Shown here: positions 827-49,944 of the stretch, one piece after another
Layout: the number at the start of each line of letters is the position of its first letter
Numbering within the stretch: position 1 is the stretch's first letter
Source of the DNA: Candidatus Omnitrophota bacterium
GTDB taxonomy: Bacteria > Omnitrophota > Gorgyraeia > Gygaellales > Profunditerraquicolaceae
Assembly (NCBI GenBank): GCA_030650425.1
Contig: JAUSED010000005.1
Span: 206,932-270,931, forward strand
Reading direction: 5' to 3'
Length of the DNA: 64,000 nt
Made by a program: the position numbers and the translations under genes
The notes under the pieces: model-generated
The model's database searches: none
Seen by the model: only the letters and a program-made list of their open reading frames with translations
Told to the model about the DNA's origin: nothing

Positions 827-846
827 GAGAGATAAATTCCTGCCAA

Positions 847-3957: not shown

Positions 3958-4008
3958 TAGGGGACACTTTCCAATAAATAGTAAACGCTCGTAGGAAAGT
4001 GTCCCCTA
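3958..4008. repeat. REP-like hairpin element, family R copy D, in the 5' leader of the hydrogenase operon
   Basis: TAGGGGACACTTTCC - 21-nt AT-rich loop - GGAAAGTGTCCCCTA. A degenerate half-site GGGACAGTTTCT lies at 3933..3944. Confidence 0.85.
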
Positions 4009-4025
4009 CTGCTAAAGATACTACT

Positions 4026-5468: not shown

Positions 5469-7300
5469 TGGTCCAAGCCTTACTGCTTATTCTGATCATT
5501 CCTTTGATTTCCGGGGTGATCATGTTTTTTATCCCCAAGAAAGAGCGCAGGGCTCAAGAAGGTTTGTTAATCATCGCCAGTTTAGCTAATTTTATCCTCG
5601 CGGTATCTCTATTCCCGCAAAATTTTACTTACAGGTTGCCGTGGCTCGACTCGGGAATCGAACTGTCTTTTAGGCTGTATAATTTTAGCAGCTTTATGCT
5701 TTTATCTACTGCTTTTTTTGGTTTCTTAATCGCTTTGTACTCGGTTATTTTTATGCGGGGAAGGAATTTCCTCAACCAGTTTTACGGGTATTTTCTGCTC
5801 TGTATTTTTTTTAGTAACGCGGTATTTTTATCCGATAACCTTTTGGTTTTATTCTTCTTTTGGGAAGGCCTTTTACTTTCGCTCTTTGGGATGATTGCGG
5901 TGGGTAATAAAGAGGCATTTAAGACTGCCACCAAAGCCTTTATCATTATTGGGGTGACGGATTTGTGTATGATGTTAGGGATTGCTTTGACCGGACACTT
6001 AAGCGGGACAATGACCCTTTCCAAAATTAATCTTCCGCTGAATAATCCCCTTGCCAGCATAACCTTTATTCTGTTGATGATCGGCGCGATTTCAAAAGGC
6101 GGGGCAATGCCTTTTCATAGCTGGATTCCGGACGCCGCCACTGACGCGCCGCTTCCTTTTATGAGTTTTGTGCCGGGGGCGATGGAGAAACTTTTAGGGA
6201 TCTATTTTCTTACCAGAATTTCATTGGATTTATTTCAACTCAACGCCCAGTCAGGCTTAAGTACTTTACTGATGAGTATCGGCGGAATAACGATTATCCT
6301 GGCGGTAATGATGGCTTTAATCCAGAAAGATTATAAGCGGCTCTTGTCGTATCATGCCATTAGCCAGGTTGGTTATATGATTTTAGGTGTTGGCACAGCT
6401 CTTCCTGCCGGTATCGTCGGCGGGCTCTTTCATATGATCAATAATGCCTTATATAAAAGCGGGCTCTTTCTTACCGCCGGGAGCGTGGAAAAACAAGCCG
6501 GTACAACGGATCTGGGTAAATTAGGCGGGTTAGGCAGGGTGATGCCGGTCACCTTTGGCTGTTTCCTGATTACGGCCTTGGCTATTTCCGGAGTCTGGCC
6601 CTTTAACGGGTTTTTCTCCAAGGAACTGGTCTATGACGCGGCGATTGAACGGGGGATGATTTTTTACCTTGCCGCTGTTGTCGGTTCATTCTTTACTGCT
6701 GCTTCTTTTTTAAAATTAGGGCATGCCGCATTTTTAGGCAAGCTCAGCTCCCAAAACGAAAAGACCAAAGAGGCAGCCGGAGCAATGCTGATTCCGATGA
6801 TCGTTATTGCCGCAGCCTGCGTAATTTTTGGCCTATTTAATCAACTTCCTTTAAAATACCTTATTCAGCCGATACTGGGAGATAGATTGGAAGGGCATAA
6901 TTTTAGCGGCTTCCCGGTTAACATAACACTAGTGGTTATTACTTTTGTAGTCTTATTTTTAGCCCTGGCCAACCATCTCTTCGGCGCCAAGATTAAAGGG
7001 AGCGGCTTAGCTGCCTTGGATCATATTCGTTACGCGCCGGCGCTCTCTAAGATTTACGACTTAGCTGAGAAAAGATTATTTGATCCTTATCACTGGGGTT
7101 TGGGCTTAGTGAATATTATTTCCAAGCTTAGCTTGGGCATAGATCGAGGGATAAACTGGCTCTCTGATGGATTAAGCGTGCGCTTGGCGTATGGCTTATC
7201 CTCGGGGATCAGGAAAGCCCACACAGGGAACTATTCAGTTTATTTATCCTGGTCCATCGCGGGGATGTTGATTATATTCGTTATATTAATTATTTTATAG
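5465..7300 (+). CDS. Mrp/NuoL-family antiporter-like subunit 2 (long form, 611 aa)
   Basis: Motif 'SWIPDAATDAP'; 14+ predicted TM helices; ATGA overlap with the upstream gene. Confidence 0.8.
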   Translation: MMVQALLLILIIPLISGVIMFFIPKKERRAQEGLLIIASLANFILAVSLFPQNFTYRLPWLDSGIELSFRLYNFSSFMLLSTAFFGFLIALYSVIFMRGRNFLNQFYGYFLLCIFFSNAVFLSDNLLVLFFFWEGLLLSLFGMIAVGNKEAFKTATKAFIIIGVTDLCMMLGIALTGHLSGTMTLSKINLPLNNPLASITFILLMIGAISKGGAMPFHSWIPDAATDAPLPFMSFVPGAMEKLLGIYFLTRISLDLFQLNAQSGLSTLLMSIGGITIILAVMMALIQKDYKRLLSYHAISQVGYMILGVGTALPAGIVGGLFHMINNALYKSGLFLTAGSVEKQAGTTDLGKLGGLGRVMPVTFGCFLITALAISGVWPFNGFFSKELVYDAAIERGMIFYLAAVVGSFFTAASFLKLGHAAFLGKLSSQNEKTKEAAGAMLIPMIVIAAACVIFGLFNQLPLKYLIQPILGDRLEGHNFSGFPVNITLVVITFVVLFLALANHLFGAKIKGSGLAALDHIRYAPALSKIYDLAEKRLFDPYHWGLGLVNIISKLSLGIDRGINWLSDGLSVRLAYGLSSGIRKAHTGNYSVYLSWSIAGMLIIFVILIIL

Positions 7301-7316
7301 TTACAGGAGAAAACTC

Positions 7317-8750
7317 GTGTACGCATTATTAGTTTTAGTCCCATTCTTTAGCCTTCTTGCCTTGAATCTTCCTTTTAGGGAACTGAATAGAAGGCTGGCC
7401 TTTGGCTTTGCCGCCATTTTATTTTTGCTGCAAATGGGCCTCGTATTTATTCCGGATGTTTATTTTTGGAGAGTGCACTTATCTTTCTTCGCTAATATTT
7501 TCCACTTTCAGCTGGCCGCGGATATTTTAAGTAAAGTTGTCTTGTTCTGCATTGGTTTGGTTTCTTTGACGGCCTTATGCGTTTCCCGTTCGTTGATCAA
7601 AGAATCCGAGGAAAGGTTTAATTTTATCAATATTATTTTACTGGCGGTAGCAGGGATGAACGGCGTAGCCTTAGCGCAGGATATATTCTCTCTTTACGTA
7701 TTTTTGGAGATTACCGCGGTTTCATCTTTCATTCTGATCGCGTTTGAAAAGGATATATTGGGATTGGAAAGCTCTTTTAAATACATTGTTCTTTCTGCTG
7801 TGGCTACAGTTCTGATGATCGCCGGTATTGCTATATTAATGTTCATTGCCGGAAGCACGAATTTCTCGGTCATCCATTCCGCGCTCTTAAGCCAGAACAG
7901 GAACCTCTTGCTCAGTCTGTCTATAGGGCTATTTCTTTCGGCGCTATTTATTAAGGCCGGGCTGATGCCTTTTCATGGCTGGCTTCCTGACGCTTATACT
8001 GCGGCGCCAGCCCCGGTATCGATATTCTTGGCAGGTATTGTGACTAAAGTTGCCGGGGTCTATTGTTTGATCAGGATAATCTTATCCGTCATCGGTTTTA
8101 ATGATCAATTAAAAGGTATTCTTTTATTAGTCGGAGCTTTCTCGGCTATTTTTGGCGCGCTTAGCGCCCTTACGCAAAGCGATTTTAAGAGGATGCTTAG
8201 CTATTCCAGTATTAGTCAAATCGGTTATATTATATTAGGTTTAGGGAGCGGTACAGCTTTAGGGGTTGCCGGCGCGACCTTACATATTTTTAATCACGCG
8301 GTATTCAAATCGCTCCTTTTCGTAAATTCCGCGGCAGTAGAGAGCCAGACAGGTTCAAGAGATATAGATAAGATGAACGGTTTAGCTAAGCAGATGCCTT
8401 GGACGAGCTTAACCTCGATTTTAGGGAGTTTATCCTGCGCGGGCATTCCGCCTCTGGCCGGATTTTGGAGCAAGCTGGTGATCATCATCGCGCTCTGGCT
8501 GGCCGGTTATAAGATTTACGCGGTGATCGCGGTATTGGGAAGCCTGTTGACCTTAGCCTATTTTTTGGCCCTGCAAAGGAAACTTTTCTTTGCTCAGCCA
8601 AATGATGAATTCAAGAATATTAAAGAAGCCGGGTTTGGCCTCATCTTTCCCGCGTTTTTCCTCGCGGCTTTGATTGTGGGTGCAGGGATATTATCTCCCT
8701 GGATACTCAGTAACTTTATTTTAGGTTTTAATTCACTAGTAGGAGGTTAG
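7317..8750 (+). CDS. Mrp/NuoN/M-family antiporter-like subunit 3
   Basis: 'GWLPDAYTAAPAP' motif; GTG start with RBS CAGGAGAAAA. Confidence 0.8.
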   Translation: MYALLVLVPFFSLLALNLPFRELNRRLAFGFAAILFLLQMGLVFIPDVYFWRVHLSFFANIFHFQLAADILSKVVLFCIGLVSLTALCVSRSLIKESEERFNFINIILLAVAGMNGVALAQDIFSLYVFLEITAVSSFILIAFEKDILGLESSFKYIVLSAVATVLMIAGIAILMFIAGSTNFSVIHSALLSQNRNLLLSLSIGLFLSALFIKAGLMPFHGWLPDAYTAAPAPVSIFLAGIVTKVAGVYCLIRIILSVIGFNDQLKGILLLVGAFSAIFGALSALTQSDFKRMLSYSSISQIGYIILGLGSGTALGVAGATLHIFNHAVFKSLLFVNSAAVESQTGSRDIDKMNGLAKQMPWTSLTSILGSLSCAGIPPLAGFWSKLVIIIALWLAGYKIYAVIAVLGSLLTLAYFLALQRKLFFAQPNDEFKNIKEAGFGLIFPAFFLAALIVGAGILSPWILSNFILGFNSLVGG

Positions 8751-8751
8751 T

Positions 8752-9246
8752 TTGTTGCTGGAGTTATTGATATTAATATTATTAGTTAGCGCGGGGTTAT
8801 GGACAGTGATGACCCGGAGCCTTTTACGTTCGGCTATGGGCTTGGCCTTAGCCAGCGCGATCCTAACTATAGTCATGTTTAGAATGAACGCTAATATAGC
8901 GGGTGTTTTCGAATTATCGGTCTGCGCGGGATTAATCCCGGTTTTATTTATCAGCGTGATTAGCCTTACCCAGCCAATGACCTTTAAAGAGGCATCCGAC
9001 CATATGAAAGAAAGATTACATCGTTTCTGGGGCCTGCCCTTAATCGTGGTTGTTTTAGGAGTAACGCTTGCTTTGGTGAGTTTTAAATATAAGGTTACAC
9101 CGGCAGCGATTCAGGAGGGAAAACCGGATGTGCGTTTTATCTTATGGCATTTAAAGCAATTTGATTTACTGGGACAGATCATCATACTTTTTACCGGAGT
9201 GTTTGGCGTGGCGATCTTATTTAAGGAAAGGAATAAGCGTGGCTAA
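8752..9246 (+). CDS. MnhB/MrpB-like small membrane subunit
   Basis: 164-aa hydrophobic protein; TTG start with a strong RBS (TAGGAGGTTAG); position in the operon. Confidence 0.5.
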   Translation: MLLELLILILLVSAGLWTVMTRSLLRSAMGLALASAILTIVMFRMNANIAGVFELSVCAGLIPVLFISVISLTQPMTFKEASDHMKERLHRFWGLPLIVVVLGVTLALVSFKYKVTPAAIQEGKPDVRFILWHLKQFDLLGQIIILFTGVFGVAILFKERNKRG

Positions 9247-9532
9247 CGCGATTACGGTGATTTTACTTTTTATTATCGGTATCTATTGTATCTTGGTGAG
9301 CCATAATTTAATCCGCGTCTTAATCGGATTAGAGATCCTGATTAAGGCGGTTACGCTTTTAGTTATATTTTGCGGTTATCAAACCCAAAACACAGCTTTA
9401 GCCCAAGCGCTGGTGATTACTATTATTGTCATTGAAGTAGTAATGATGACTGTGGCAGCAGGGGTGGTGGTGGGTATCCATCGCCAGAATAATTCGCTGG
9501 ACGCGCGAAATATAAGAAAATTGAAAGGATAA
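9239..9532 (+). CDS. NuoK/MrpC-like subunit
   Basis: ~97 aa with 3 TM helices. GTG start at 9239 preceded by AAGGAAAGGAAT; the tracked ORF begins at 9161 and overlaps the previous gene. Confidence 0.55.
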   Translation: MANAITVILLFIIGIYCILVSHNLIRVLIGLEILIKAVTLLVIFCGYQTQNTALAQALVITIIVIEVVMMTVAAGVVVGIHRQNNSLDARNIRKLKG

Positions 9533-9538
9533 CCTCTA

Positions 9539-9871
9539 ATGGGGAATTTACTGGTTAGCCCGCCGGTTGTTTTTACCATAATCTTGGCCTTACTTTTTCT
9601 CTTAAACCGTTTATGCGCGGGAATAGCCTTTCATTCCGATAAGAATCAAGCGAGCTGTTGTAAATCTTACGCCTGCGGAGAGAATAATTTCAACAGCAAT
9701 GCCCAGCCGGATTACAGTCTTTTTTTTCCTTTCGCCTTTTTCTTTACCTTAGCGCATGTGGCCACCTTGATGATTACTACTATTCCTTTTATCGACGCCG
9801 GCGCGCTGATGATAGCGATGTTTTATATTATCAGTGGGATTATCGGGTTGTATATATTATTAAGGAAATAG
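9539..9871 (+). CDS. Small membrane subunit of the hydrogenase module (function unclear; NuoA/MbhI-like position)
   Basis: 110-aa ORF with two hydrophobic segments and a Cys-rich loop. Assigned by operon context only. Confidence 0.35.
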   Translation: MGNLLVSPPVVFTIILALLFLLNRLCAGIAFHSDKNQASCCKSYACGENNFNSNAQPDYSLFFPFAFFFTLAHVATLMITTIPFIDAGALMIAMFYIISGIIGLYILLRK

Positions 9872-9891
9872 AAAAAGGTGACAGATAGAAT

Positions 9892-10341
9892 ATGATGAAT
9901 TTAACTAAAAAGATAATTACTTGGGCGAGAATCAAATCTCCATGGATCTTACACTTTAATACCGGGGCTTGCAATGCCTGCGACATTGAAATTATTGCCG
10001 CCTTAACGCCGCGCTATGACTTGGAGCGTTTCGGGGTTTTACTCAAAGGCTCGCCGCGCCACGCGGATGTATTGGTTTGTTCCGGGCCGGTGACTAAGCA
10101 GATAGAAGAGAGGTTATGCCGGATTTATGAACAGATGCCTGAGCCGAAATTTGTGGTGGCTGTCGGCGCCTGCGCCTGTTCCGGAGGAGTGAATAAAGGT
10201 TGTTATAATGTTGCCGAGGGGATAGATAAGGTTATTCCTGTTTCAGCGTATATCCCGGGTTGCCCGGCCAGCCCTAAGGCGATTATCGATGGCGTGGTTA
10301 AGCTTTTAGCCAGCCTTGAAGAGAAAGAAGCTAAAAAATAG
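9892..10341 (+). CDS. [NiFe]-hydrogenase small subunit / NuoB-like (proximal 4Fe-4S)
   Basis: Four conserved Cys: 'GACNACD', 'GACACSGG', 'GCPASP'. NuoB/MbhJ/EchC-family size of 149 aa. Confidence 0.85.
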   Translation: MMNLTKKIITWARIKSPWILHFNTGACNACDIEIIAALTPRYDLERFGVLLKGSPRHADVLVCSGPVTKQIEERLCRIYEQMPEPKFVVAVGACACSGGVNKGCYNVAEGIDKVIPVSAYIPGCPASPKAIIDGVVKLLASLEEKEAKK

Positions 10342-10353
10342 CGGGAGGTAACG

Positions 10354-10833
10354 ATGTCCCAAGAAGAAAAAATCAAAGAAAACCTAATCAGTAAATTCAG
10401 CTATCTTGATAATTCTATCAACTTAGTCCGGCCGCGGCGCATCTCTATTGAGGTCGGTTTGGATAATTTTTTAGCGGTCTTCGCGTATTTAGCTAAGGAT
10501 ATGCAATTTTCGCATCTATGCACGATCACCGGTTTAGATGAGCAGGAAAGATTGGGATTCATTTATCATTTGGCCGGCGCAGGCGGAGTGATGATAAATT
10601 TAAAGACCAGCGTGCCAAAAGCGAAGCCTTTGATTAAAAGTGTTACGGCTTATTTTCCCGGAGCTGAAATTTATGAAAGGGAATTGGTGGATTTATTCGG
10701 GGCAAAGGTTGAAGGCCTTCCACCCGGGCATCGTTATCCTCTGACTGATGATTGGCCTGCTGGCCAGCATCCTTTGAGAAAAGATTGGAGACCCAATCCT
10801 GATATAGGAAAGGAGGCGGGTAAAGATGCATAA
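10354..10833 (+). CDS. NuoC/30-kDa-subunit-like hydrogenase component (MbhK/EchD-like)
   Basis: 159 aa, position between the small and large subunits, and the 'ERxxxDxxGxxxxGxP'-like C-terminal motif (ERELVDLFGAKVEGLPPGHRYP). Confidence 0.7.
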   Translation: MSQEEKIKENLISKFSYLDNSINLVRPRRISIEVGLDNFLAVFAYLAKDMQFSHLCTITGLDEQERLGFIYHLAGAGGVMINLKTSVPKAKPLIKSVTAYFPGAEIYERELVDLFGAKVEGLPPGHRYPLTDDWPAGQHPLRKDWRPNPDIGKEAGKDA

Positions 10834-12061
10834 TTCAGAAGAGTTTAGGATTCCTATCGGTCCGCAGCATCCGGCATTAAAAGAGCCGGAGGGTTTTAGC
10901 GTAGCTCTTAAAGGCGAAAAAATCTTAGGCGTAGATATCCGTTTAGGTTACAATCACCGCGGGATAGAAAAAGCTGCTGAAGAGAGAAGCTATATACAGG
11001 ACATCTATCTTATTGAACGCGTCTGCGGCATATGTTCGCATTCGCACTCTACTTGTTTTGTTCAGACAGTTGAGGAGATTGCCGGTTTAACCGTTCCGGC
11101 CAGAGCGCTTTATATCCGCACGATTATCGCGGAATTAGAGAGGGTGCACAGCCATCTTTTGTGGCTGGGTGTAGCCGGACATGAAATTGGTTTTGATACT
11201 TTACTCATGTATTCCTGGCGGGATAGAGAAGTGGTGATGGATATTTTGGCGCTGGTTACCGGGAACAGGGTAAACTATGGTATGAATACTATTGGCGGAG
11301 TGCGCCGGGATATCAGCCTCCAACAGGCCCAAGAGATACTCAAAGCCATGGATATCTTGGAGGAGAGGACAAAATATTATATTGAAGTTGCTACCAACGA
11401 GACGACTATAATTAAAAGATTGTCAGGGGTAGGGGTTTTATCCCGCGAAGATGTTTTACTACTGGATGCGGTTGGGCCGACTGCCCGCGCCTCCGGGGTT
11501 AAGCGCGATGTGCGGGTTGATGATCCCTATGCCGCCTATGGGGAGCTCACCTTTAACGTGATTACCGATGATCATTGCGATGTTTACGGCAGGACAGTGG
11601 TCCGGGTTAAAGAACTTTTGGAATCCTACAAAATAATCCGGCAGGCGCTTAAGAATTTACCCGCTGGACCGATAGCGATCAGGGCTCCGCGCAAGATTCC
11701 GGCGGGTGAGGCCTTAGGCCGTTACGAAGCTCCACGCGGCGAAGATGTGCATTATGTCAAATCCAATGGCACTGAGAAGCCGGAGAGGGTTAAAATCAGG
11801 GCGCCTACTTTAGCCAATGTTCAGGCGGTAAAGCATATGCTGCGCGACAGGTTTTTAGCGGATATGCCGATAGTCGTCGCGGCGATTGATCCTTGTTTTT
11901 CCTGTACTGACCGTATGGTTAGATTAGCAGAGCAGGGGAGCGATAAATCCAAGATAATCAGTTGGCCTAGCCTGCACGCTTATAGTATAGAATGGCATAA
12001 AAAGCAGGGTATAGATTTTAGCGAACTTAATAAGAAGCTGGCAGCGAGGTTAGCGAGATAA
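10826..12061 (+). CDS. Group-4 [NiFe]-hydrogenase large subunit (NuoD-like; MbhL/EchE-type)
   Basis: N-terminal 'RVCGICSHSH' (RxCGxCxxxH) and C-terminal 'DPCFSCTDR' (DPCxxCxxR) Ni-Fe ligand motifs are both intact. Confidence 0.85.
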   Translation: MHNSEEFRIPIGPQHPALKEPEGFSVALKGEKILGVDIRLGYNHRGIEKAAEERSYIQDIYLIERVCGICSHSHSTCFVQTVEEIAGLTVPARALYIRTIIAELERVHSHLLWLGVAGHEIGFDTLLMYSWRDREVVMDILALVTGNRVNYGMNTIGGVRRDISLQQAQEILKAMDILEERTKYYIEVATNETTIIKRLSGVGVLSREDVLLLDAVGPTARASGVKRDVRVDDPYAAYGELTFNVITDDHCDVYGRTVVRVKELLESYKIIRQALKNLPAGPIAIRAPRKIPAGEALGRYEAPRGEDVHYVKSNGTEKPERVKIRAPTLANVQAVKHMLRDRFLADMPIVVAAIDPCFSCTDRMVRLAEQGSDKSKIISWPSLHAYSIEWHKKQGIDFSELNKKLAARLAR

Positions 12062-12063
12062 TT

Positions 12064-13005
12064 ATGTTAGGGGAGCTTTTTTACATATTTATATTTCCGG
12101 GATTTATTTTCCTGATTATTTTTAGCTTGACCGCGGAATTTATCGACCGCAAGATTTACGCCCGGCTGCAGAATAGGGTTGGGCCTCCCTGGTTTCAACC
12201 TTGGGCTGATTTTATCAAGTTGTTAGCTAAGGAAGATATTGTTCCGGCCGAATCTAATCCAAAGATGTTTAAGGTAGCTCCGATATTTGCCTTGGCCGCG
12301 GCAATAAGCGCGTTTCTTTATATCCCTCTCTGGAAGACGGACGCGTTATTTTCTTTTAATGGCGATTTGATCGTCGTCCTTTATCTGTTGACCCTGCCTA
12401 CACTAGCGTTTTTTATCGGAGGTTGGTATTCTACTTCGCTCTATTCCCGGATCGGTTCGGTGCGTTGTATGACTCAACTCTTTGCTTATGAAGTCCCTCT
12501 TTTTATGGGCATTCTTTCTTCGGCCTTATTGGCGGATAGCTGGTCATTAAAAGGAATCGCGGTTTTTTATATGGCTCATCCCTGGTTTTGGCTATTTAAC
12601 TTGGCCGGCTTTAGCGTATCTCTAATCAGTTTGTTGGGTAAACTGGAGAAAGTTCCTTTTGATATTCCTGAGGCAGAGACAGAAGTAGTTGCCGGAGCGT
12701 TTACCGAATATAGCGGCAGGATGCTCGCTTTTTTAAGGATGACCTTAGACATAGAATTGGTTACCGGAAGCGCGCTTTTAGCTTTAGTCTTCTTTCCTTT
12801 TGCTCTTAATGTTCATCCGGCTCTGGGGTTCGTAATTTTTATGATCAAAATTCTCTTTATCGTAAGTTTAATCGCGTTGCTGCGCACGGTGGTCGCCCGC
12901 TTGCGCATCGACCAGATGATTGATTTCTGCTGGAAATTCCTGGTTCCGCTTGCTGCCACGCAACTTTTACTAAATCTTATGTTGAAAGGAATGTTTTTAA
13001 GATGA
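12064..13005 (+). CDS. NuoH-like membrane anchor subunit (MbhM/EchB/HyfC-type)
   Basis: 313-aa polytopic protein with a NuoH/ND1-like pattern; position in the operon. Confidence 0.8.
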   Translation: MLGELFYIFIFPGFIFLIIFSLTAEFIDRKIYARLQNRVGPPWFQPWADFIKLLAKEDIVPAESNPKMFKVAPIFALAAAISAFLYIPLWKTDALFSFNGDLIVVLYLLTLPTLAFFIGGWYSTSLYSRIGSVRCMTQLFAYEVPLFMGILSSALLADSWSLKGIAVFYMAHPWFWLFNLAGFSVSLISLLGKLEKVPFDIPEAETEVVAGAFTEYSGRMLAFLRMTLDIELVTGSALLALVFFPFALNVHPALGFVIFMIKILFIVSLIALLRTVVARLRIDQMIDFCWKFLVPLAATQLLLNLMLKGMFLR

Positions 13006-13367
13006 GGCCGGGAAAGATGTTAAGAGAGGTGCTCGGGTCTATTTTTAAGAAACCGGCCACGAATTTATACCCGGCGCAAAAATTAGAGATGCCGGATAAA
13101 TTCCGCGGCAAACTTAAATTTTATCCTGAGAAATGTATCGGTTGCAAGATGTGCATGCGCGACTGCCCGACTAACGCCATCACTATCAATAAAATCGCTG
13201 AAAATAAGTTTGAGGCGGTTTTTGATTTAAGCCGCTGTATATATTGCGCGCAGTGCGTGGATTCCTGTCCCAAGAAGGCGCTGGAACCGACTAAAGATGT
13301 AGAGCTGGCCCAGTTGGATAAGAATAAACTGCGAGTGGTTTTTTCATATAAAGAAAAGAGCAGGTAA
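13002..13367 (+). CDS. NuoI-like 2x[4Fe-4S] ferredoxin subunit (MbhN/EchF-type)
   Basis: Two CxxCxxCxxxCP motifs: CIGCKMCMRDCP and CIYCAQCVDSCP. Confidence 0.85.
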   Translation: MRPGKMLREVLGSIFKKPATNLYPAQKLEMPDKFRGKLKFYPEKCIGCKMCMRDCPTNAITINKIAENKFEAVFDLSRCIYCAQCVDSCPKKALEPTKDVELAQLDKNKLRVVFSYKEKSR

Positions 13368-17481: not shown

Positions 17482-17490
17482 TTTCCCTAG

Positions 17491-17570
17491 TAGGGGACAC
17501 TTTCCTTTAGTAGTTTAGTAAGAGCCCTGACGGAAAGTGTCCCCTAGTTGTGAGTTAGGAAAGTGTCCCC
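17491..17570. repeat. REP-like hairpin element, family R copy E (inverted orientation relative to A-C) plus an extra right half-site
   Basis: TAGGGGACACTTTCC…AGAGCCCTGAC-GGAAAGTGTCCCCTA. The loop ends with the reverse complement of the GTCAGGGCTCT seen in copies A-C. An additional GGAAAGTGTCCCC lies at 17558..17570. Confidence 0.85.
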
Positions 17571-17629
17571 TGAATGGTAGAGAGAAAATTTCCTTGCAAA
17601 AGCAAAACTTGAATGTTAAGCTGTGCTTA

Positions 17630-18253
17630 ATGAAGGCCCGCCTTTTACTAGCCCTATTTTTTTGCCTGCTTTTGCCAGTTCTAACTTTTGCCGCCCAAGC
17701 TTCTTCCTCAAGGCCTGCCAGGCTTAGGCAAGCTGTAATTCCCATAACCATAAATAATGGCGCCAATAATACTAATTCAACCACAGTAACCCTGAATCTC
17801 TCTGTGGATAACCTCTCAGGCCAGCCTCCTTTTCAGATGTCTTTTTCCAACAACAACTATCTCTGGTCAACCTTATTTCCCTTTAGCCCAAGCAAAACCT
17901 GGGAACTATCTCCTTTGGGAGATACTTCAGGAGACGCTAAGCTGGATATGGGAGATGCGATGCTCATTGCCCAATACCTGGCGCATATACGCTCTCTCAC
18001 CCCTGAGCAGATAGCTGTAGCTGATGCTAACCAGATCAAAGGAATTGATATAGGTGACGCTATGTTGATTGCCCAGCGCGTGAATAAGAAAAGAGTCCTG
18101 CCTATCGGCGAAGGAGCGCGCACGGTCTATGTTAAATTTAAGGATAGTCTCGGAAACTGGTCAGATATTTACTCTGCCGCGATTATCCTGGATACTCAAG
18201 GCCCAACTTTAGAGATCACCTCGCCTCAAGAAGGAGCAGTAATCAAAGAATGA
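17630..18253 (+). CDS. Secreted dockerin-like repeat protein ending in a truncated Ig-like segment
   Basis: Signal peptide MKARLLLALFFCLLLPVLTFAAQA. Two dockerin/EF-hand-like Ca-binding repeats: 'GDTSGDAKLDMGDAMLIAQYL' and 'DANQIKGIDIGDAMLIAQRV'. The start was moved to the ATG at 17630, after the REP element. The gene shares an ATGA overlap with the RHS gene. Confidence 0.5.
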   Translation: MKARLLLALFFCLLLPVLTFAAQASSSRPARLRQAVIPITINNGANNTNSTTVTLNLSVDNLSGQPPFQMSFSNNNYLWSTLFPFSPSKTWELSPLGDTSGDAKLDMGDAMLIAQYLAHIRSLTPEQIAVADANQIKGIDIGDAMLIAQRVNKKRVLPIGEGARTVYVKFKDSLGNWSDIYSAAIILDTQGPTLEITSPQEGAVIKE

Positions 18254-21200
18254 AGAAAATCAGCGCGTTTTTTATCAGCCTTGGCTTAATCCTCTCCGTA
18301 GTTAGCCTTGTCTTTGCCCAAAACGCCGATGTGTCGGGAGAGTGGTGGATAGATCCAACTGTCTATCCGATTATAAGCGCTAAAAGAGTACAAACGGACA
18401 TTATCCATCTGCCCACAGGAGATAAAACAGGTATTACTGAATCCACTGTAGCTGCCTCATTTGCGGCTTCAAGCGGTTTTTATGATGTAACTCAAAATAG
18501 CAACGGGGATATTAGTGCCTCAAGGTCGATAACGGATGCCGGCGGAACGGTTATCATAAGTACAATGAAAGGGAAGGTCACCGGCAATACTGTAACTTTT
18601 ACCATAGATAATAAGATGATATTCCCTTCAGACGCTATTACCGGATTTAGTGGTTATGAAGCTACCAATCTTGCCTGCTCCGGAACAATAAAAACCTCTG
18701 ATTTACCAAACACTATTGATTATACCTATAGCGGTACTTATTACCTTTACTCTCAGATGTCTACTCCTTGGGCCGATAGTTTTACTGTTACTACCGCAAC
18801 ATCTGAGAATACCGCCTCTCTTAGAATAACAAAATCCTCACCTCCGCCTCCGCAGCAACCAAACCCTCCTCCAGATTCTTCTAACGGCGAATTTTATAGC
18901 GATCCGCAAAATAGCGTAGGGGAGCCGATTAACTCGGTTACCGGGAATATGTATATCATTACCCCGGATTTAACCCTTTCGGGTAAAGGAATGAATTTTG
19001 CCTTTAGCCGCACCTATAATAGCCAGTCTGCCAGTAACACCAGTGAATCCGGCCCCTTAGGTTATGGCTGGACGCATAGTTATAATCTTTATCTTACGCA
19101 AGATACCCAGAATAAGCTTGTCAAAATAAAAGATGAGGAGGGGAAGGGCTATTTATTCGCGGATAATCAAGACGGTACATTTGTCTCCCAGCGCGGCGAA
19201 TATTCCATTCTCACCAAAGACTCATCTAACTTCATCTGGAGAAAAAAGGACGGCAAGCAATATATCTTTGATTTAGCCGGCAAGCTTACCCAGATCAAAG
19301 ACCGCAATAATAATACTATCAATCTTTCCTATAATAATCAAAACCAACTAACCTCGGTTACTGATACTTACGGCCGAAAGATAGAACTAACCTACTCAGA
19401 AGCTAGAATCAGTTCTCTAATTGATCCTTCAAGTAGATCCTTTATCTATACTTACGATACTCAAGGGAATTTATCTGCTGCCACTGATCCTCTGGGTAAC
19501 AGTACTACTTATACCTATGACTCCCAACATAACTTAACCAAGCAAACTGACCCCCTAAACCAATCGATCTATTATACCTACGATAGCTTAAACCGCTGCA
19601 CTTCCTCATCCGGAGAGAATAATGCCGGCAGGGTGGATTTGGTTTTTGATCCAGCGAATCACCAAACTACTATCACCGATTCTAAGAACAATAGCGCTAT
19701 CCATTACTACAATGATGATTCCCTGATTATCAAGGTTAAGAACACTCAGGGAAGCGAAAGTACCTCTATCTGGGATAATAATTTTAACCTGGTCTCCCGC
19801 ACTGATGCTTTAGGCCGCGCCACTCAGATGGAGTATGATGCAAAGGGTAACCTAACCAAGGTTACTGATGCGGATAATAAGATTACCTCTTTTACTTATG
19901 AGCCCGACTTTAATCTATTACTGACTTCCACCGACGCTCAAAGCAATCTCACCACCTATACCCGCGACGCCAGTGGTAACCCCACCAAGGTAACTGACGC
20001 CTACAACAACTCCACTAATTACACCTATAATAACGCAGGCCAAGTAACCAGTGTTCAAAACGCCTTGGGAAACTCTACTAATTTTACTTATGATACCCAA
20101 GGTAACCTGATTCAGGTAAAAGACGCTTTAGGCAATCTAACTACCTTTAGTTATGATACTATAGGTAACCTACTCCAATCCAAAGACGCCCTAAGTAATA
20201 TCACCAAGTTTACCTATGATAACCTGAATCAGTTGACTAAGGTTACTTACCCGGATGATACCACTCTAACTTACGTCTATGACTCAGCAGGTAACCGTAT
20301 TTCCGTAACCGATACTCTTGGCAATACCACCACCTCTACCTTTGATCAATTCCAGCGCATCACTTCCACCACTGATGCTTTAGGTAATAGTATTAACTAC
20401 GTTTATGACAGCGAAGGCAACTTAACCTCGCTTACCGATCAAAACAATAACCAGACTACCTACACCTACGACAGCTTAAACCGCCTAATCCTAGAGACCG
20501 ACGCCCTCGGCAACAAAAAGCAATACCAATATGATGCTGTAGGTAACCGCACTACTTACATTGATGCCAAAAATCAAAGCACTAGTTATACCTATGACAA
20601 ACTCAACCGTCTGACTAAAATCACCTATCCAGATAGAGATGTGAGTTATACTTATGATTCCTTAGGCAGGCGTCTAACGATGTTGGATGAGCGCGGCACA
20701 ACTAATTACACCTATGATAAATTAGGCCGCCTGACGCAAGTTGACGGCCCAAAAGCTAATGATACAGTTAGCTATACCTATGATAAGCTTGGTAACCGCT
20801 TGACTATGACTGATCCAACAAACAAAATCACTTCCTACTCCTACGATGCGCTCAACCGCCTGACTTCGATCACTGACCCGCAAGCTAAAGTTACTAGCTA
20901 CACCTATGATACTTTAGGTAATTTAACCAACCTAATTTATCCCAACGCTACTAAAACAACCTATACCTACGATACCTTAAACCGCCTGCTTAAACTTACC
21001 GAACAGCTAGCCACAAGCCCCTATACTAAGTTAGCTGAGTTTAGCTATACCTATGATCAATTAGGCAGGAGAACTCAAGTTAATCTTTTAGACGCAAGCC
21101 AGATCAATTATACCTATGATGCTTTAAGCCAACTCACTCAAGAGAACAAAACTTACTCGACCAGCCCTTATCAGATTAGCTATAGCTATGACCCTGCAGG

Positions 21201-22503
21201 TAACCGCCTAGAGATGATTAATCAAGGTGTAAAACACGCTTATTCCTATAATTCCCTAAATCAACTCACCGAGGAAAGTTTTAGCGGCGGCAGCAATCCC
21301 ACTAAAATCACAGTTACCGGAAGAGCCTCGGATGCAAGCGGGATCAAACAGGTAACCGTTAACAATATAACCGCAGCCTTAGCAGGGAATAGCTTTACCT
21401 GCGCGGATGTTACGCTTACACCCGGGCCAAATACCCTCACTGTCATAGCTACTGATCAGGCCGGTAACAGCACTACCAAAATACTCCACGTCACCTACAG
21501 TCCTACTACTAAGCTTATCTATACCTATGACAATAACGGAAGCTTGATTAGCAAGACAGGATCAGGCGATGCTCTTAACTTAAGCTATGACTCAACTAAC
21601 CGGCTCACCCGTTTTAAAAACTCTCAGCTTGATGAGACTTATCAATATGACGCAGAGGGTAAAAGAATCGCTAAGCAATCCGGCTCAAGCACAACAAACT
21701 ACCTTTATGATGGCTTAAATGTAATTCAGGAGAACACTTCAATTGGCTCAACTAACTACACCCGTAATCCCAATGCTCCGGGAGGTATCGGTGGTATAAT
21801 CAACCAGCAGTCTCCAAGTAATGTATCCTCCTATTATCATTACGACGGCTTAGGCAGCGTAACTAATTTAACCAACTCAACAGGAACAAATACCCAAACC
21901 TACAGCTACGATGCCTTTGGTAATTTACAGGGACTGTCCTCGAAGGGAACTGTCCCTGATCTTCGCGGATTCCTGACTAAAGAAGCTGACTCAACCGGTC
22001 TAAGTTACTTCGGCGCAAGATACTACGACCCCAAGATCGGAAGATTCATCACTCAGGACCCGAGCGGTATGAGTGATGGGCCGAATTTGTACTTGTATGT
22101 TAAAAATAATCCTGTAAATTTTGTGGATGCGTGGGGGTTGTGTAAGAATCCCTCGCAGTTAATCCTTCAACAATTATCGCCTTCAGATATAATCTTTGGA
22201 GTTAAACAATACTTAAAAGTTCTTGATTTACTCTCGCCACAACTACGCGCTACTTTAGATACAATAAGTAGTTTTTCTTCAAATAAGGGGCCATTGGAGA
22301 CGCTTGGCGGAATAGGTGGTGGATTATTGGGCGGGATTGGAGGATCAGCTATAGGGAGCGTAGAGGGTCCTTTTGGAACCTTTGTTATTGGCACAATAGG
22401 TTCATATCTAGGTTCTAAATTTGTATCAGATAAAGGTAAAGTCGCAGACGAATATTATTACCAAATAATTTATGAATTAATAACTAGAAAGGAAAATAAA
22501 TGA
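18250..22503 (+). CDS. RHS/YD-repeat polymorphic toxin with an Ig-like domain, RHS core (…DPxGL-type cleavage site 'VDAWGL') and a ~120-aa glycine-zipper C-terminal toxin tip
   Basis: 1417 aa. Signal peptide; dozens of 'YTYDxxGN(L/R)' YD repeats; RHS-associated core 'YHYDGLGSV…ARYYDPKIGRFITQDPSGMSDGPNLYLYVKNNPVNFVDAWGL'; C-terminal 'GGIGGGLLGGIGGSAIGSVEGPFGTFVIGTIGSYLGS'. Confidence 0.85.
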   Translation: MKKISAFFISLGLILSVVSLVFAQNADVSGEWWIDPTVYPIISAKRVQTDIIHLPTGDKTGITESTVAASFAASSGFYDVTQNSNGDISASRSITDAGGTVIISTMKGKVTGNTVTFTIDNKMIFPSDAITGFSGYEATNLACSGTIKTSDLPNTIDYTYSGTYYLYSQMSTPWADSFTVTTATSENTASLRITKSSPPPPQQPNPPPDSSNGEFYSDPQNSVGEPINSVTGNMYIITPDLTLSGKGMNFAFSRTYNSQSASNTSESGPLGYGWTHSYNLYLTQDTQNKLVKIKDEEGKGYLFADNQDGTFVSQRGEYSILTKDSSNFIWRKKDGKQYIFDLAGKLTQIKDRNNNTINLSYNNQNQLTSVTDTYGRKIELTYSEARISSLIDPSSRSFIYTYDTQGNLSAATDPLGNSTTYTYDSQHNLTKQTDPLNQSIYYTYDSLNRCTSSSGENNAGRVDLVFDPANHQTTITDSKNNSAIHYYNDDSLIIKVKNTQGSESTSIWDNNFNLVSRTDALGRATQMEYDAKGNLTKVTDADNKITSFTYEPDFNLLLTSTDAQSNLTTYTRDASGNPTKVTDAYNNSTNYTYNNAGQVTSVQNALGNSTNFTYDTQGNLIQVKDALGNLTTFSYDTIGNLLQSKDALSNITKFTYDNLNQLTKVTYPDDTTLTYVYDSAGNRISVTDTLGNTTTSTFDQFQRITSTTDALGNSINYVYDSEGNLTSLTDQNNNQTTYTYDSLNRLILETDALGNKKQYQYDAVGNRTTYIDAKNQSTSYTYDKLNRLTKITYPDRDVSYTYDSLGRRLTMLDERGTTNYTYDKLGRLTQVDGPKANDTVSYTYDKLGNRLTMTDPTNKITSYSYDALNRLTSITDPQAKVTSYTYDTLGNLTNLIYPNATKTTYTYDTLNRLLKLTEQLATSPYTKLAEFSYTYDQLGRRTQVNLLDASQINYTYDALSQLTQENKTYSTSPYQISYSYDPAGNRLEMINQGVKHAYSYNSLNQLTEESFSGGSNPTKITVTGRASDASGIKQVTVNNITAALAGNSFTCADVTLTPGPNTLTVIATDQAGNSTTKILHVTYSPTTKLIYTYDNNGSLISKTGSGDALNLSYDSTNRLTRFKNSQLDETYQYDAEGKRIAKQSGSSTTNYLYDGLNVIQENTSIGSTNYTRNPNAPGGIGGIINQQSPSNVSSYYHYDGLGSVTNLTNSTGTNTQTYSYDAFGNLQGLSSKGTVPDLRGFLTKEADSTGLSYFGARYYDPKIGRFITQDPSGMSDGPNLYLYVKNNPVNFVDAWGLCKNPSQLILQQLSPSDIIFGVKQYLKVLDLLSPQLRATLDTISSFSSNKGPLETLGGIGGGLLGGIGGSAIGSVEGPFGTFVIGTIGSYLGSKFVSDKGKVADEYYYQIIYELITRKENK

Positions 22504-22916
22504 TGAGGGTTGTTTTAACGAATATAAAAACCGCAATCGTTTTCTTAGTGGAAATTATATGTATTTTTATGATTATAGCGTTTTCGGCGCTTTATTTCAT
22601 ATTTAAAAAAGGAGATTTTATATTTTTTGTAACTAGTATTTTGTTATTTAGTACCGGGTGTATTGTTTTAGATTTAATTAGAAGAAACAAAATCCCACTT
22701 TTTGTGACTAATATTACAAAGGTAGATAATTCTTCGAGATTAATGTTGGGTTTGCTTTGCATAGCCCTTGGTTTAAGTGGATTTTATTATGCTTATAGTA
22801 ATCCTAATGATAAATTGCTAGGTATTTTTGGGGGATTATTATTTGGTCTTGGTGGTATCGGTTTACTTATCCCGAATGAAAAAGAAAATAAAACAAGAAA
22901 AGAGAATAAGGAATAA
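22500..22916 (+). CDS. Putative RHS immunity protein (small 4-TM membrane protein)
   Basis: 138-aa ORF overlap-coupled (ATGA) to the 3' end of the RHS toxin gene; four hydrophobic helices. Assigned from polymorphic-toxin gene architecture only. Confidence 0.4.
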   Translation: MMRVVLTNIKTAIVFLVEIICIFMIIAFSALYFIFKKGDFIFFVTSILLFSTGCIVLDLIRRNKIPLFVTNITKVDNSSRLMLGLLCIALGLSGFYYAYSNPNDKLLGIFGGLLFGLGGIGLLIPNEKENKTRKENKE

Positions 22917-23023: not shown

Positions 23024-23518
23024 TCATATCTGTAGCTGATCTAGTAACCAAATGAATGAACTTTTGGCCAAAACTCTTTCTTGGCAGCTGCTCCAGCGGT
23101 ATTCTCCCGCTGAGTTTACAAGCTTTGCTCTGACGGGATTGAGTTCAACATAATGGGTACAGTCGATTAGATAGTTATCTTTGACAATCACCTTGCTCTT
23201 AAAGCGCCCTTGCCATAGATGGCCTACTTTCTGATAGCGTTTATTGAAGTATGCGGTGTAGGCTCTGGATAGCCCTTGCATAAACTTAGCCATATTGGCG
23301 GAAAGCCTCGGCTCTCCGATTAGGTGAATATGGTTTGGCATAAGGCAGTAGCCATACAACAGGAAACCGAATTTCCTTTTGAATCTTCTTAGGAATATAA
23401 GGTATCTCTTATAATCATTTTCATCAAAGAATACCTGTTGTCTTTGGTTGCCGCGAATGGTAATGTGATAACAAGCGTTTTTGATTAGTAGCCTTGGGCC
23501 TGTAGGCATAAGCATCAC
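23024..23518 (-). CDS. IS200/IS605-like Y1 HUH transposase of the RAYT (TnpA-REP) type
   Basis: N-terminal 'YHITIRGNQRQQVFFDENDYKRYL'; HUH motif 'NHIHLI'; catalytic-Tyr region 'YRWSS'. Length of 164 aa is typical of RAYTs. Confidence 0.8.
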   Translation of the reverse strand: MMLMPTGPRLLIKNACYHITIRGNQRQQVFFDENDYKRYLIFLRRFKRKFGFLLYGYCLMPNHIHLIGEPRLSANMAKFMQGLSRAYTAYFNKRYQKVGHLWQGRFKSKVIVKDNYLIDCTHYVELNPVRAKLVNSAGEYRWSSCQERVLAKSSFIWLLDQLQI

Positions 23519-32335: not shown

Positions 32336-34242
32336 ATGGATAAAGAAGAGGCAATAGGTGATTTCTTAAAAGGGCTGCGTATAGCCATTAACAATTCTCT
32401 GGCTTACTCCCGCCAGCACCCTTATTTCTTAAAAAACTCCCAAGACTTTAAAGAAAAAATTGACGAAATACTTAACTTTTTAAATCCCGTAAAAGTTAAC
32501 GTTACCCCCGAAACCTTATTTCTAGATGGAAAAGACCGGGGTAAAGTTCCTTTTGTTACGGAGTTGGCCCGTCTTTTACATCAGCGTAAGATTAAGAGCG
32601 TAGAGATTAAGCCCGGCTTAACCGTCAATGAGATAGCGGATTTCTTAAGCTTTCTATCTCTGCAGCCGAAAGAAATTATCAAGAATGGCGGTTTGTCCCG
32701 CTTGCTAAAGAATGCGGAGAGTGAACATATCTCTGTTGAAGATTTGGATTATTCAGCGCTCTTGGGCGCAGAGGGAGAAGAGGCTAAGGATATCTGGCTG
32801 TATATGTTTAAAGAGGCGGTAGAGAAGCAGGATGTTAAAAAAATAAATGAATTCGCGGATAACTTCTCTCAAAACGTAAATAAACTTAGCGTGAACGAGC
32901 TGGTTGAGGATGATAAATTAAGGGAAAACCTGGGCAGTTTTCTTAGTCATTTAAAAGAAGAGGAAAAAGAAAAATTTTCCAAATGTTCTCAGGAGCTCTC
33001 CAATGTTATTATGGACTCAGCTGCCCAAATCAGCGTTGATCATGTTGATAAGCTGAAAGAAATATTCAAGGATTTTGACAGTAATGATTTTTCGGATGTT
33101 TTACTTTCCCGGTTATCCGGCGAAAGCGGATTAAATGCCTTGAACCTGGGATTATTCTCCCGCCTCGCGGGAGAGGATAAGGCGAATAAGATTACCTCCG
33201 GGTTATTAAGTAAGGTTGAAGGGAGGACGGATTTAAAAAATAACGCCGCCTTATTCAAAAAAATTACAAATCTACTATCCGGAACAGACGCTGAAACGGT
33301 TTCTCCTGCTTACCACGCCGCCCTTACCGCTTTAATGAAGGATATTTCTACCAGCAGCAGCCTGTTTTTTGACCGCGAAAAATTGCGGGTTAATTACCGC
33401 ATGATTATGCTTAATCTGTTCGCTCAAGAAGAGAGCCCGGAGGGGCTCGAGCTGATCGCTAAGAGGTTGAGCGAAGAATGGGAGAGCATAGTTCAGGAGA
33501 AGGATTACAGCTTTTTGAGGTATTTATTAGATACCCTGAAGAAAAAGAAGGGACGATCGCCTTTAGATTTATTGGAGGGCATGGAAAAGAAGATTGCCCA
33601 GATTATTGAAAGCGATCTCTGGGATGGAGAGCTGTCCGGGGATTTGATTTATTTAGCCGACTCTTTAGAAAAGAGTTATTCGACGGCTAATTTTTATCTA
33701 GATAAGATATTTCAGGAAAAAAAACTTAGTGCTTACGGATTAAAGTTATTCTTGAAGTTTTTCCCCGCGGAGCTAAGTAACTTCTATGGGTTCTTGAAGG
33801 AAAGGCATACTGATTTTGAGTTAATCAGCGCAATCATTAAGGATCTGGCGCAGGTTAATTTGCCGGTTTCTTTAGCTGTCTTAAAAGAAATCTTCTCTTT
33901 TGGGAATGAGTTGATTAAACTAGAGGTATTGAAAGCCATGCAGAGCGCCCGGGAATTTGATCCGGAGTTTATCATTCCTCTGCTTAAAGAGAAAAGCGTA
34001 ATCTTAAGGAGAGAGGCGTTATCGGTTTTACTTAGAGATAGCCAAGCTAAGCAAAAGGCGATTAGCATACTTTTGGGAATCCCGAGTCTCTGGGGCATGG
34101 AAAATCAGCTAATTTTAGAAAATATTATGATTATCGAGGAATTGAATGTAAGGGAAGCCAAGGATTATTTAATACTTTTAGGGAAAAAGAGATTTTTCTG
34201 GAACAGGGAATTGAGAAATCGGGCGCTTAAGCTGCTGGAGCA

Positions 34243-34252
<10 letters not shown>
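32336..34252 (+). CDS. Hypothetical protein with an N-terminal domain paralogous to that of the downstream HD-GYP protein (DUF3391-like); no HD motif
   Basis: The N-terminal ~130 aa align with the N-terminus of ORF 34243..35589. The rest is helical and repeat-like. Overlap-coupled to the HD-GYP gene. Confidence 0.5.
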
Positions 34253-49839: not shown

Positions 49840-49912
49840 GGGCCTCTAGCTCATCCGGTAGAGCAGCGGCTTTTTAAGCCGCGTGTGCCGAGTTCGAGTC
49901 TCGGGAGGCTCA
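49840..49912 (+). tRNA. tRNA-Lys (anticodon TTT)
   Basis: Cloverleaf folded by hand: acceptor GGGCCTC/GAGGCTC; D-arm GCTC…GAGC; anticodon stem GCGGC/GCCGC with loop TTTTTAA; T-arm CCGAG-TTCGAGT-CTCGG. Confidence 0.8.
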
Positions 49913-49944
49913 CTTAATTTTAGCAAAGCGGTAAGAGGTTATAG

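Follow-up and report, generated by a model that had tools for sequence, protein, structure and literature searches.

A probable three-gene RHS polymorphic-toxin cassette in Candidatus Omnitrophota, with a glycine-zipper tip, a co-inherited four-transmembrane immunity candidate and a dockerin-bearing partner

A stretch of 64,000 nucleotides from a Candidatus Omnitrophota bacterium (contig JAUSED010000005.1 of assembly GCA_030650425.1, positions 206,932 to 270,931; the whole stretch is referred to as the window) carries three plus-strand open reading frames (ORFs) chained by two 4-nt ATGA overlaps (Table 1), which encode a secreted partner protein, an RHS protein, and a small protein with four transmembrane (TM) segments. 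The three genes are probably a polymorphic-toxin cassette of this diderm organism, in which the C-terminal tip of the RHS protein would depolarise membranes, the 4-TM protein would provide immunity, and the partner would serve as an accessory. That the tip and the 4-TM protein constitute a functional toxin/immunity module is very likely; that the tip is a depolarising or pore-forming toxin specifically is judged, by analogy with characterised systems, to be rather probable. The class of Sec-type RHS polymorphic toxins is known, and what is new here is the tip family, the 4-TM family, and the tail-coupled accessory gene, with its dockerin in this locus. An original prediction, made by a model from the DNA letters and a list of their ORFs, had read the locus as a toxin with a downstream immunity gene and a dockerin-like partner; this reading is supported in its essentials, pore formation being the part that we infer.

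The tip had been described as some 120 residues rich in GxxxG repeats, and it proved to be a real conserved domain of exactly 120 aa with 18 Gly, no Trp, and a zipper, LGGIGGGLLGGIGGSAIGSVEGPFGTFVIGTIGSYLGS, at tip residues 55-92. Searched exhaustively with phmmer, 1.84 billion cluster representatives yielded nine weak matches, including four relatives (P0005, P0002, P0003, and P0007; E 2.6e-8 to 1.7e-5) that align across the whole domain at 31-38% identity. The five members share 18 invariant columns, ten of them Gly (G56, 60, 61, 64, 68, 72, 84, 87, 91, and 99 in tip numbering), and with G76, kept in four of the five, the invariant columns yield an i+4 glycine ladder (G56-60-64-68-72-76), followed by an (E)GPF turn and then a second Gly-rich helix. 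Conservation extends to the N-terminal ~50 residues as well (PSDIxFxVxQYxK..LL.P). Three of these relatives are fused to the end of an RHS core, with …NNPVNFVDPWGL preceding a tip that begins CVGS… in L005, …NNPVNWVDPWGM preceding ECEN… in L002, and …NNPINYTDPTGM preceding IRQK… in L004, which is cut at the contig end; in L003, the fourth, the tip ORF starts 30 nt past an RHS core-end ORF. The other matches were compositional or confined to the zipper hairpin (P0004, P0008, P0009), P0004 being a pre-toxin region with an AEENN (VENN-like) motif. As a side observation, the hairpin G.I.GG..G…GP[LF]G…G..G occurs in two non-RHS proteins at E ~1e-4, namely P0008, a 661-aa repeat protein that looks LysM-containing by reading of its sequence (not a tested assignment), and P0009 (250 aa), which hints at a wider glycine-zipper-hairpin module.

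The ORF that follows the RHS gene encodes a 138-aa protein, identical to NCBI MDO8662138.1 (locus tag Q7K98_02805), in which the expected ATGA coupling and four hydrophobic segments were both found and for which Pfam, NCBIfam, and PADLOC gave no family match. In all four tip loci with downstream DNA (the window, L002, L004, and L005), the next ORF is a homologue of this protein, 118-145 aa in length and multi-TM, with a shared C-terminal motif SNPxDKLL…LFGLxGI…; the L003 contig stops short of any downstream gene. Hidden Markov models (HMMs) of the tip and of the 4-TM protein were searched against 18,906 ORFs of 164 loci, including ~150 distinct RHS loci found with the core end of the window protein, and matched only the window, its duplicate in the Logan assemblies, and L002-L005. 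As the L004 ORF had helped to build the 4-TM HMM, its own HMM score is circular and not independent. The two families are therefore restricted to each other, both being absent from the ~150 related RHS loci with other tips in this survey, which is the opposite of a 4-TM gene conserved independently of RHS loci. Identity to L005 falls from 59.7% in the core end to 38.4% in the tip and 25.9% in the 4-TM protein, and GC content from 0.43 in the core to 0.366 in the tip and 0.285 in the 4-TM gene (0.442 for the whole window), the low-GC module starting exactly at the expected cleavage site. Both gradients fit a mobile toxin/immunity module. On sequence evidence, the tip and the 4-TM protein are rare, previously unnamed families, and the latter is the cognate immunity candidate.

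The size of the tip family is probably underestimated, as tips inside long RHS proteins are easily missed in clustered libraries dominated by RHS shells. Word-index searches with the tip or its profile found nothing beyond the profile's own sequences, and these are weak negatives, the same searches having missed the query's own 1417-aa RHS protein, a representative in that database. In the clustered protein database, MDO8662137.1 (the 1417-aa ORF, named in NCBI as “RHS repeat-associated core domain-containing protein”) and MDO8662138.1 are singleton clusters. A metagenome scan with the tip alignment gave 56 pattern matches with none confirmed, and 72,556 plasmids contained no tblastn match to the tip or to the 4-TM protein.

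Several observations weigh against a depolarising tip, or against the cassette as a whole, and have to be set beside the co-inheritance. The tip has no significant match in Pfam or NCBIfam and no detectable homology to any characterised pore-former; the Pfam glycine-zipper models were unmatched (PF05433, E 1.8, 9 bits against a threshold of 24.2), and the other best Pfam match, PF20721 (C19orf12; E 0.23, 11.7 bits against 30), is likewise below threshold. The tip-family profile against all PDB chain sequences reached E 0.029 at best (a fragment of spike S2'), with no Tse5 chain among the matches; by the same Pfam and PDB searches, the tip resembles no known non-toxic domain. An AlphaFold2 (AF2) model from the four-sequence alignment has four helices (14-27, 33-45, 51-75, and 77-118) at low confidence (pLDDT 55.7). 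The tip is only moderately hydrophobic, with a maximal 19-residue Kyte-Doolittle mean of 1.03, and hence no classical TM helix is predicted. The family counts only five members, so the case for co-inheritance depends on the window and three independent loci, and the second DPxG element of the RHS autoprotease has exchanged Pro for Ala. Finally, the first downstream ORF has at least two predicted TM segments at 53 of 116 loci in the RHS clade, whatever the tip, so that a membrane neighbour alone is no proof of a membrane-acting tip. The immunity arrangement proposed originally thus stands as far as the co-inheritance with the tip is concerned (4/4 loci), while its implication of a membrane-acting toxin is weakened; membrane neighbours may plausibly be common because Sec-exported toxins meet their producer only from the periplasmic side.

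These observations also lend themselves to a toxin/immunity pair in which the tip is not a pore-former, the zipper only moving the tip into or across the membrane, or the tip blocking a specific membrane protein, with the lethal activity lying elsewhere. Such a role has a precedent in Tde1, a DNase of type VI secretion (T6SS), which reportedly needs its glycine zipper for translocation and not for killing (PMC10240207), and it would sit well with the modest hydrophobicity and with the conserved N-terminal ~50 residues, which could serve entry or binding as in the two-domain ionophores of contact-dependent inhibition (CDI). It is nonetheless considered unlikely: the tip has only 120 residues, predicted to be all helical, with no catalytic-looking motif and no family match; the invariant positions are nearly all zipper Gly; and the putative immunity protein is an integral membrane protein, as with known depolarising toxins. 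The anatomy of the tip would comprise two short helices, a helical hairpin with a G-x3-G ladder around the EGPF turn, and an amphipathic helix, and since this leaves no room for an enzyme domain, membrane insertion and depolarisation are the most likely activity.

The depolarising reading draws on several characterised toxins. Tse5 (RhsP1, PA2684) of Pseudomonas aeruginosa holds the pore-forming Tse5-CT in an Rhs shell, its C-terminal fragment of ~15 kDa depolarising the target inner membrane, and its immunity protein Tsi5 has two TM segments (PMC9637101, PMC10684867). The window protein is similar in its Rhs shell, DUF6531 plug, aspartyl autoprotease motif, helical C-terminal fragment without an enzyme motif, and small membrane immunity protein. 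It differs in having a Sec signal peptide and no T6SS context, whereas Tse5 has a PAAR-like N-terminus and belongs to the H1-T6SS with VgrG1c; moreover, no sequence similarity between the tip and Tse5-CT was detectable, and Tsi5 has two predicted TM helices against four here. Glycine zippers and membrane immunity proteins recur in EsxX, a depolariser of the type VII secretion system (LXG) with the polytopic immunity proteins ExiCD (PMC12744356), and in the CDI ionophores (CdiA-CT EC93-type/CdiI) exported by two-partner secretion (PMC11630599), to which can be added CdzC/CdzD of the type I secretion system (RTX-type) with the 3-TM immunity protein CdzI (PMC5380434). A short helical tip, a GxxxG ladder, and a polytopic membrane immunity candidate encoded next door are common to EsxX-CT, CdzC/D, the CDI ionophores, and the window cassette, the first three acting by depolarising or lysing membranes; the delivery systems are different, and no sequence homology was detected. 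A pair of cytoplasmic immunity proteins is required in addition by EsxX; for an RHS tip that is encapsulated and exported by Sec, there would be no such need.

The RHS protein itself shows the architecture that had been proposed, with a signal peptide, a Pro-rich linker, and a core ending in DAWGL (Table 1). YD/RHS repeats were recognised by PF05593 in 19 stretches (E 1.5e-110) and by TIGR01643 in 13 stretches (E 4.3e-90), and the Rhs core TIGR03696 ends at the expected cleavage site (residues 1220-1297, E 3.3e-22). The Ig-like domain is present as predicted; its position is not N-terminal but inside the YD shell, an outward insert also found by phmmer in the RHS proteins of L087, L007, L090, L088, L089, and L016. 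The N-terminal β-rich domain gave no Pfam, PDB, or cohesin match, alone or as a family; its AF2 model from the single sequence was too poor for use (pLDDT 43), and scanning genomes with the first 330 aa of the RHS protein retrieved no relative. Cleavage is expected after L1297 by analogy with the published Rhs autoprotease motif DPXGX18-19DPXG (PMC10684867), of which both catalytic Asp are kept in DPSG-x19-DAWG.

The Pro to Ala exchange is one of the arguments for a non-toxic locus, in which the RHS protein would be a surface or adhesion structure with the tip as membrane anchor and the 4-TM protein as partner or chaperone, or in which a cassette with an inactive DAWGL would be decaying; the adhesin-like partner and the Ig-like insert could be taken in the same sense. 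This explanation is regarded as very improbable, given that the three ORFs are intact and coupled, that both catalytic Asp are retained, and that DAWGL is shared by the closest relative, L085. Furthermore, the low-GC boundary falls exactly at the cleavage site, and the tip is swapped for unrelated tips on homologous shells and sits in orphan-cassette arrays, as is typical of toxin modules and not of anchors.

The exchange of tips is seen throughout the related loci. L085 matches the window protein through DAWGL/CK.P (the slash marking the cleavage site) and then continues into an unrelated tip, and the complete tips of 144 related RHS loci are extremely diverse, with a median of 130 aa. None of seven sampled alternative tips from related RHS loci of Omnitrophota and of the Planctomycetes-Verrucomicrobia-Chlamydiae (PVC) group has a Pfam match, and the tips of the related loci are a large uncharted toxin repertoire. 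L002 holds a further orphan rhs-CT, whose tip differs and which is followed by an ORF of its own. Orphan rhs-CT arrays and tip exchange are textbook behaviour of toxin/immunity modules (PMC3482391). Related metagenomic and MAG loci, namely L002 (2009..3440), L018 (11968..13248), and L008 (9857..11351), contain arrays in which every orphan RHS core-end/tip fragment has a small ORF of its own behind it, and genes for Y1 transposases resembling REP-associated tyrosine transposases (RAYT; REP, repetitive extragenic palindrome) recur near such arrays (L018 13367..13993, L012 9757..10266, and L088/L089). Further hydrophobic- or Gly-rich-looking tips occur in L087, L091, L097, L009, L024, L056, and L074, and L008 and L092 have in common an “HD…W…Y” tip with a multi-TM ORF downstream. 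L090 (10793..11731), whose partner is the largest among the relatives (626 aa, with several β-sandwich modules), has a Pro-rich RHS tip of just 45 aa, and the next gene after RHS encodes a secreted repeat protein (YEGEFKDG repeats, MORN-like) and not a membrane protein.

With respect to export, the signal peptide and the absence of T6SS genes nearby were both borne out. Pfam scans of the 64 kb found no T6SS, PAAR, VgrG, two-partner, or type II secretion system (T2SS) genes and only housekeeping genes among the scanned ORFs, that is, most large ORFs of the window together with precomputed annotations (the short ORFs 9161..9532 and 62958..63470 being left out); in the RHS protein itself, Pfam and NCBIfam gave no PAAR or VgrG match, the N-terminus being a signal peptide. 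Of the 75 related RHS genes whose 5' end is intact, 58 encode a signal-peptide-like N-terminus, and Sec-type RHS proteins are the norm in the clade. Like signal-peptide RHS toxins such as WapA and the carriers of Tox-WTIP, the cassette combines a Sec signal peptide with RHS repeats and a variable C-terminal toxin, and an immunity gene lies downstream. WapA has a cell-wall-binding domain, which the window RHS protein does not, and a diderm producer, as indicated by LpxB in the window, would have to manage an extra outer-membrane step compared with WapA of Gram-positive bacteria. Signal-peptide RHS toxins are a long-recognised class, termed “T2SS”-type, and Tox-WTIP has been catalogued by comparative genomics as a two-helix pore-forming tip on RHS scaffolds (PMC3482391); WapA is reported as a signal-peptide RHS toxin of Gram-positive bacteria (PMC12704120, PMC4436062). 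Unlike Tox-WTIP (RxxR, Wx[ST]IP; PMC3482391), the tip has neither motif and no Trp. T2SS-like loci are reported to be widespread in Omnitrophota (bioRxiv 10.1101/2023.11.21.568195), and there is none among the scanned ORFs of the window.

The mechanism that would follow from these comparisons begins with Sec carrying the RHS protein over the inner membrane. By analogy with Tse5, RhsA, and Rhs1, the shell would enclose the tip, and autoproteolysis after L1297 would free it for release on contact with a target cell. The tip would then enter the target's cytoplasmic membrane from the periplasmic side, where its glycine faces may drive oligomerisation and the membrane potential would be dissipated; in the producer's own inner membrane, the 4-TM protein would block it. 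Tip and immunity gene would together be a mobile low-GC module recombined onto RHS cores. Were this to hold, the design of an RHS shell around a membrane-depolarising helical peptide, proven for the T6SS-delivered Tse5, would extend to Sec-exported RHS proteins of a T6SS-less diderm, in a phylum that, to our knowledge, has no cultured, genetically tractable members. With the cassette, the polymorphic-toxin catalogue gains a tip family that had no name and the 4-TM immunity family that goes with it; current understanding is not overturned by it, and it is offered as a useful and testable addition.

The partner gene encodes 207 aa from an ATG that opens the signal peptide MKARLLLALFFCLLLPVLTFA; an alternative GTG start at 17537 is possible and less likely. 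Its dockerin and its ATGA coupling to the RHS gene had both been predicted and were both found, although the dockerin is not the body of the protein but a loop insertion of ~65 aa. The match to PF00404 (27.2 bits against a gathering threshold of 22.9) covers model positions 1-57 of 57 and partner residues 96-152, and, as in clostridial type I dockerins, there are two duplicated loop-helix segments, DTSGDAKLDMGDAMLIAQYL and DANQIKGIDIGDAMLIAQRV. The first Ca loop has D1, S3, D5, and D12, and the second D1, N3, and D12 with Ile at position 5, so that the second site, lacking the position-5 Asp, is only partly canonical. In contrast to clostridial dockerins, the module lies in a β-sandwich loop and not at a protein terminus, and it is coupled to a toxin and not to a glycoside hydrolase. 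The phmmer matches cover partner residues 17-94 and 157-206, two segments that adjoin in the targets, and the alignment resolves a β-sandwich module of ~95 aa (…TNxTxVTLxLSAxD…QMQFSNDNxxWS…KTWxLxS/GDGxKTVYVKFKDxxGNWS…ILDT, with the slash as the insertion point) that is cleanly interrupted by the dockerin in the window protein alone, no homologue having such a module.

The supposition that a partner of this kind is unusual for an RHS toxin did not survive, tailed homologues recurring upstream of related RHS genes with only the dockerin insert being unique to the window. By phmmer, related Omnitrophota RHS genes are immediately preceded by homologues in L090 (E 4e-44) and in L010, L099, and L101 (~1e-17), and more weakly in L089 (E 5.6e-10) and L007 (E 1e-3); in L018/L119, the match is one ORF away from the RHS gene and has no conserved tail. 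The tail pattern …[IL]DTxxPxxxIxSPxxGxx[IV]x occurs in 8 of the 18,906 ORFs, all eight directly upstream of an RHS gene, and the stop of a tailed partner overlaps the ATG or GTG of the RHS gene (ATGA/GTGA). Conservation of the tail is in part explained by the Shine-Dalgarno sequence embedded in it. Other partners carry an F5/8 type C (discoidin) module (L007) or fn3, Big_13, and DUF7743 (L090). Judged from their sequences, the partners are secreted accessory proteins of a β-sandwich or carbohydrate-binding kind, which form one family and are coupled in translation to this RHS clade; the closest relatives by core end, L085 and L006, have no partner gene, and the partner is consequently an accessory and not obligatory. 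One idea that was set aside held that the partner tail, which resembles strand A of an Ig-like fold, completes the RHS N-terminal domain in a split-Ig or donor-strand manner; in L010 the tail occurs with an RHS N-terminus of unrelated sequence, and the N-terminal domain is present without any partner in L085 and L006.

The partner probably tethers or targets the toxin, and its dockerin insert is suggestive of Ca-dependent docking on a surface scaffold of the cohesin type. Pfam revealed no cohesin among the scanned window ORFs, nor was one found in the family of RHS N-terminal domains; the notion that the RHS N-terminal domain is itself a cohesin was not supported, there being no Pfam, PDB, or cohesin signal in sequence searches. 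A more elaborate proposal, which must be called doubtful, is that of a new accessory-subunit family, a modular adhesin or carbohydrate-binding protein that would bind the RHS particle via its tail (…LDTxxPxxxITSPxxGEVIx), with the dockerin plugging the loaded toxin onto a cohesin-bearing surface scaffold. If true, an ultra-small, possibly predatory bacterium would be displaying a contact-dependent, membrane-depolarising weapon in the manner of a cellulosome, and the way in which a diderm without a T6SS brings an RHS toxin to its target would be explained. In any event, the tail-coupled partner gives a handle on the display and aiming of signal-peptide RHS toxins in diderms.

The same partners bear on the purpose of the toxin, which could be a weapon of predation or parasitism wielded by ultra-small Omnitrophota against host or prey, with the partner and the N-terminal and Ig-like domains attaching to the latter. 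A predatory or parasitic life has been proposed for Omnitrophota, whose surface proteins are rich in dockerins and discoidins and whose T2SS-like loci are conserved (bioRxiv 10.1101/2023.11.21.568195), and the carbohydrate-binding and adhesion modules of the partner homologues in L007 and L090 would be in keeping with such a life. Against it stand the dedicated, co-inherited, and fast-diverging immunity gene and the orphan rhs-CT/immunity arrays, the signature of conflict among relatives, and predation is accordingly thought improbable as the explanation. Because self-protection would require an immunity gene under predation too, predation overlaps with the toxin cassette proposed here and excludes none of it.

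Table 1. Coordinates of the cassette, its parts and flanking elements in the window, and of the 4-TM homologues in three related loci (numbered by their own contigs).
Feature	Coordinates	Strand	Residues	Evidence or remark
REP-type palindrome cluster (GGGACACTTTCC and complement)	17484..17571	.		Upstream edge of the cassette; two inverted repeats among them
Partner gene	17630..18253	+	207 aa	Sec-exported; one β-sandwich module with conserved C-terminal tail; stop overlaps RHS start (ATGA)
Type I dockerin module	17912..18106	+	95-159 of partner	Pfam PF00404, E 4.6e-6; insert in β-sandwich loop
Conserved partner tail ILDTQGPTLEITSPQEGAVIKE	18185..18250	+		Holds the Shine-Dalgarno sequence (AAGGAG) of the RHS gene
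RHS polymorphic toxin gene	18250..22503	+	1417 aa	NCBI MDO8662137.1
Sec-type signal peptide MKKISAFFISLGLILSVVSLVFA	18250..18318	+	1-23	Inspection and hydropathy
N-terminal β-rich domain	18319..18834	+	24-195	21-41% identity to L085, L006, L089, L090 (alignment)
Pro-rich linker	18835-18882	+	196-211	Sequence
DUF6531, N-terminal plug of RHS shell	18919..19152	+	224-301	Pfam, E 2.5e-16
Ig-like domain, Glucodextran_B-type	21301..21495	+	1018-1082	Pfam, E 1.1e-7; insert within YD shell
Aspartyl autoprotease motif DPSG-x19-DAWG/L	22057..22140	+	1270-1297	Sequence; published motif definition
C-terminal tip (candidate toxin)	22141..22500	+	1298-1417	120 aa; predicted all-helical; glycine-zipper hairpin 22303-22416
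4-TM protein gene (immunity candidate)	22500..22916	+	138 aa	MDO8662138.1; hydropathy
REP-associated tyrosine transposase (RAYT)	23024..23518	-		NF047646, E 9e-23, at its cutoff; Y1_Tnp; marks downstream edge of the cassette
L002 downstream ORF	955..1311			BLASTP E 7e-8 against window 4-TM protein
L005 downstream ORF	1112..1474			Overlaps RHS stop
L004 downstream ORF	554..991			Weak by BLASTP

REP clusters flank the cassette on both sides. The window contains 21 copies of GGGACACTTTCC against 3.8 expected, a number reached in none of 100 shuffles; they cluster at 2713-4005 and 17494-17569, with degenerate copies at 22978-23640 around the RAYT gene, and an independent Logan assembly of the region (contig L001) begins just within the upstream REP cluster. 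Promoter and terminator scans of the cassette gave no signal above background, and the PADLOC defence models yielded no meaningful match for the cassette, the tip and the 4-TM protein included.

Upstream of the cassette lie a Mrp/complex-I-like membrane module, ExbB/ExbD, and an H+-pyrophosphatase, and downstream the RAYT transposase, an amino-acid permease, an ATP synthase operon, and genes for pyrimidine synthesis, LpxB, ribosomal proteins, and glycolysis. A tRNA cluster (Lys-TTT, Leu-TAG, and Gly-GCC; 49840..50246) follows the ribosome-recycling-factor gene and is too distant from the cassette to be its integration site. For two sizeable ORFs, 32336..34252 (638 aa) and 2706..3773 (355 aa), Pfam gave no match at E<=1e-5, and REP copies overlap the latter. 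At the left edge of the window, an AbiEii-type nucleotidyltransferase toxin (89..826; type IV toxin-antitoxin system, E 1.7e-24) stands beside a secreted-looking protein resembling phospholipase D (847..2409; PLDc_2, E 2e-27), and the pair may be another conflict locus. The upstream membrane module (3999..13367) comprises ten genes of Mrp-antiporter/complex-I-like type with a NiFe-hydrogenase-type large subunit (Complex1_49kDa and NiFeSe_Hases), and resembles a membrane-bound hydrogenase or an Mbx-type energy-converting complex.

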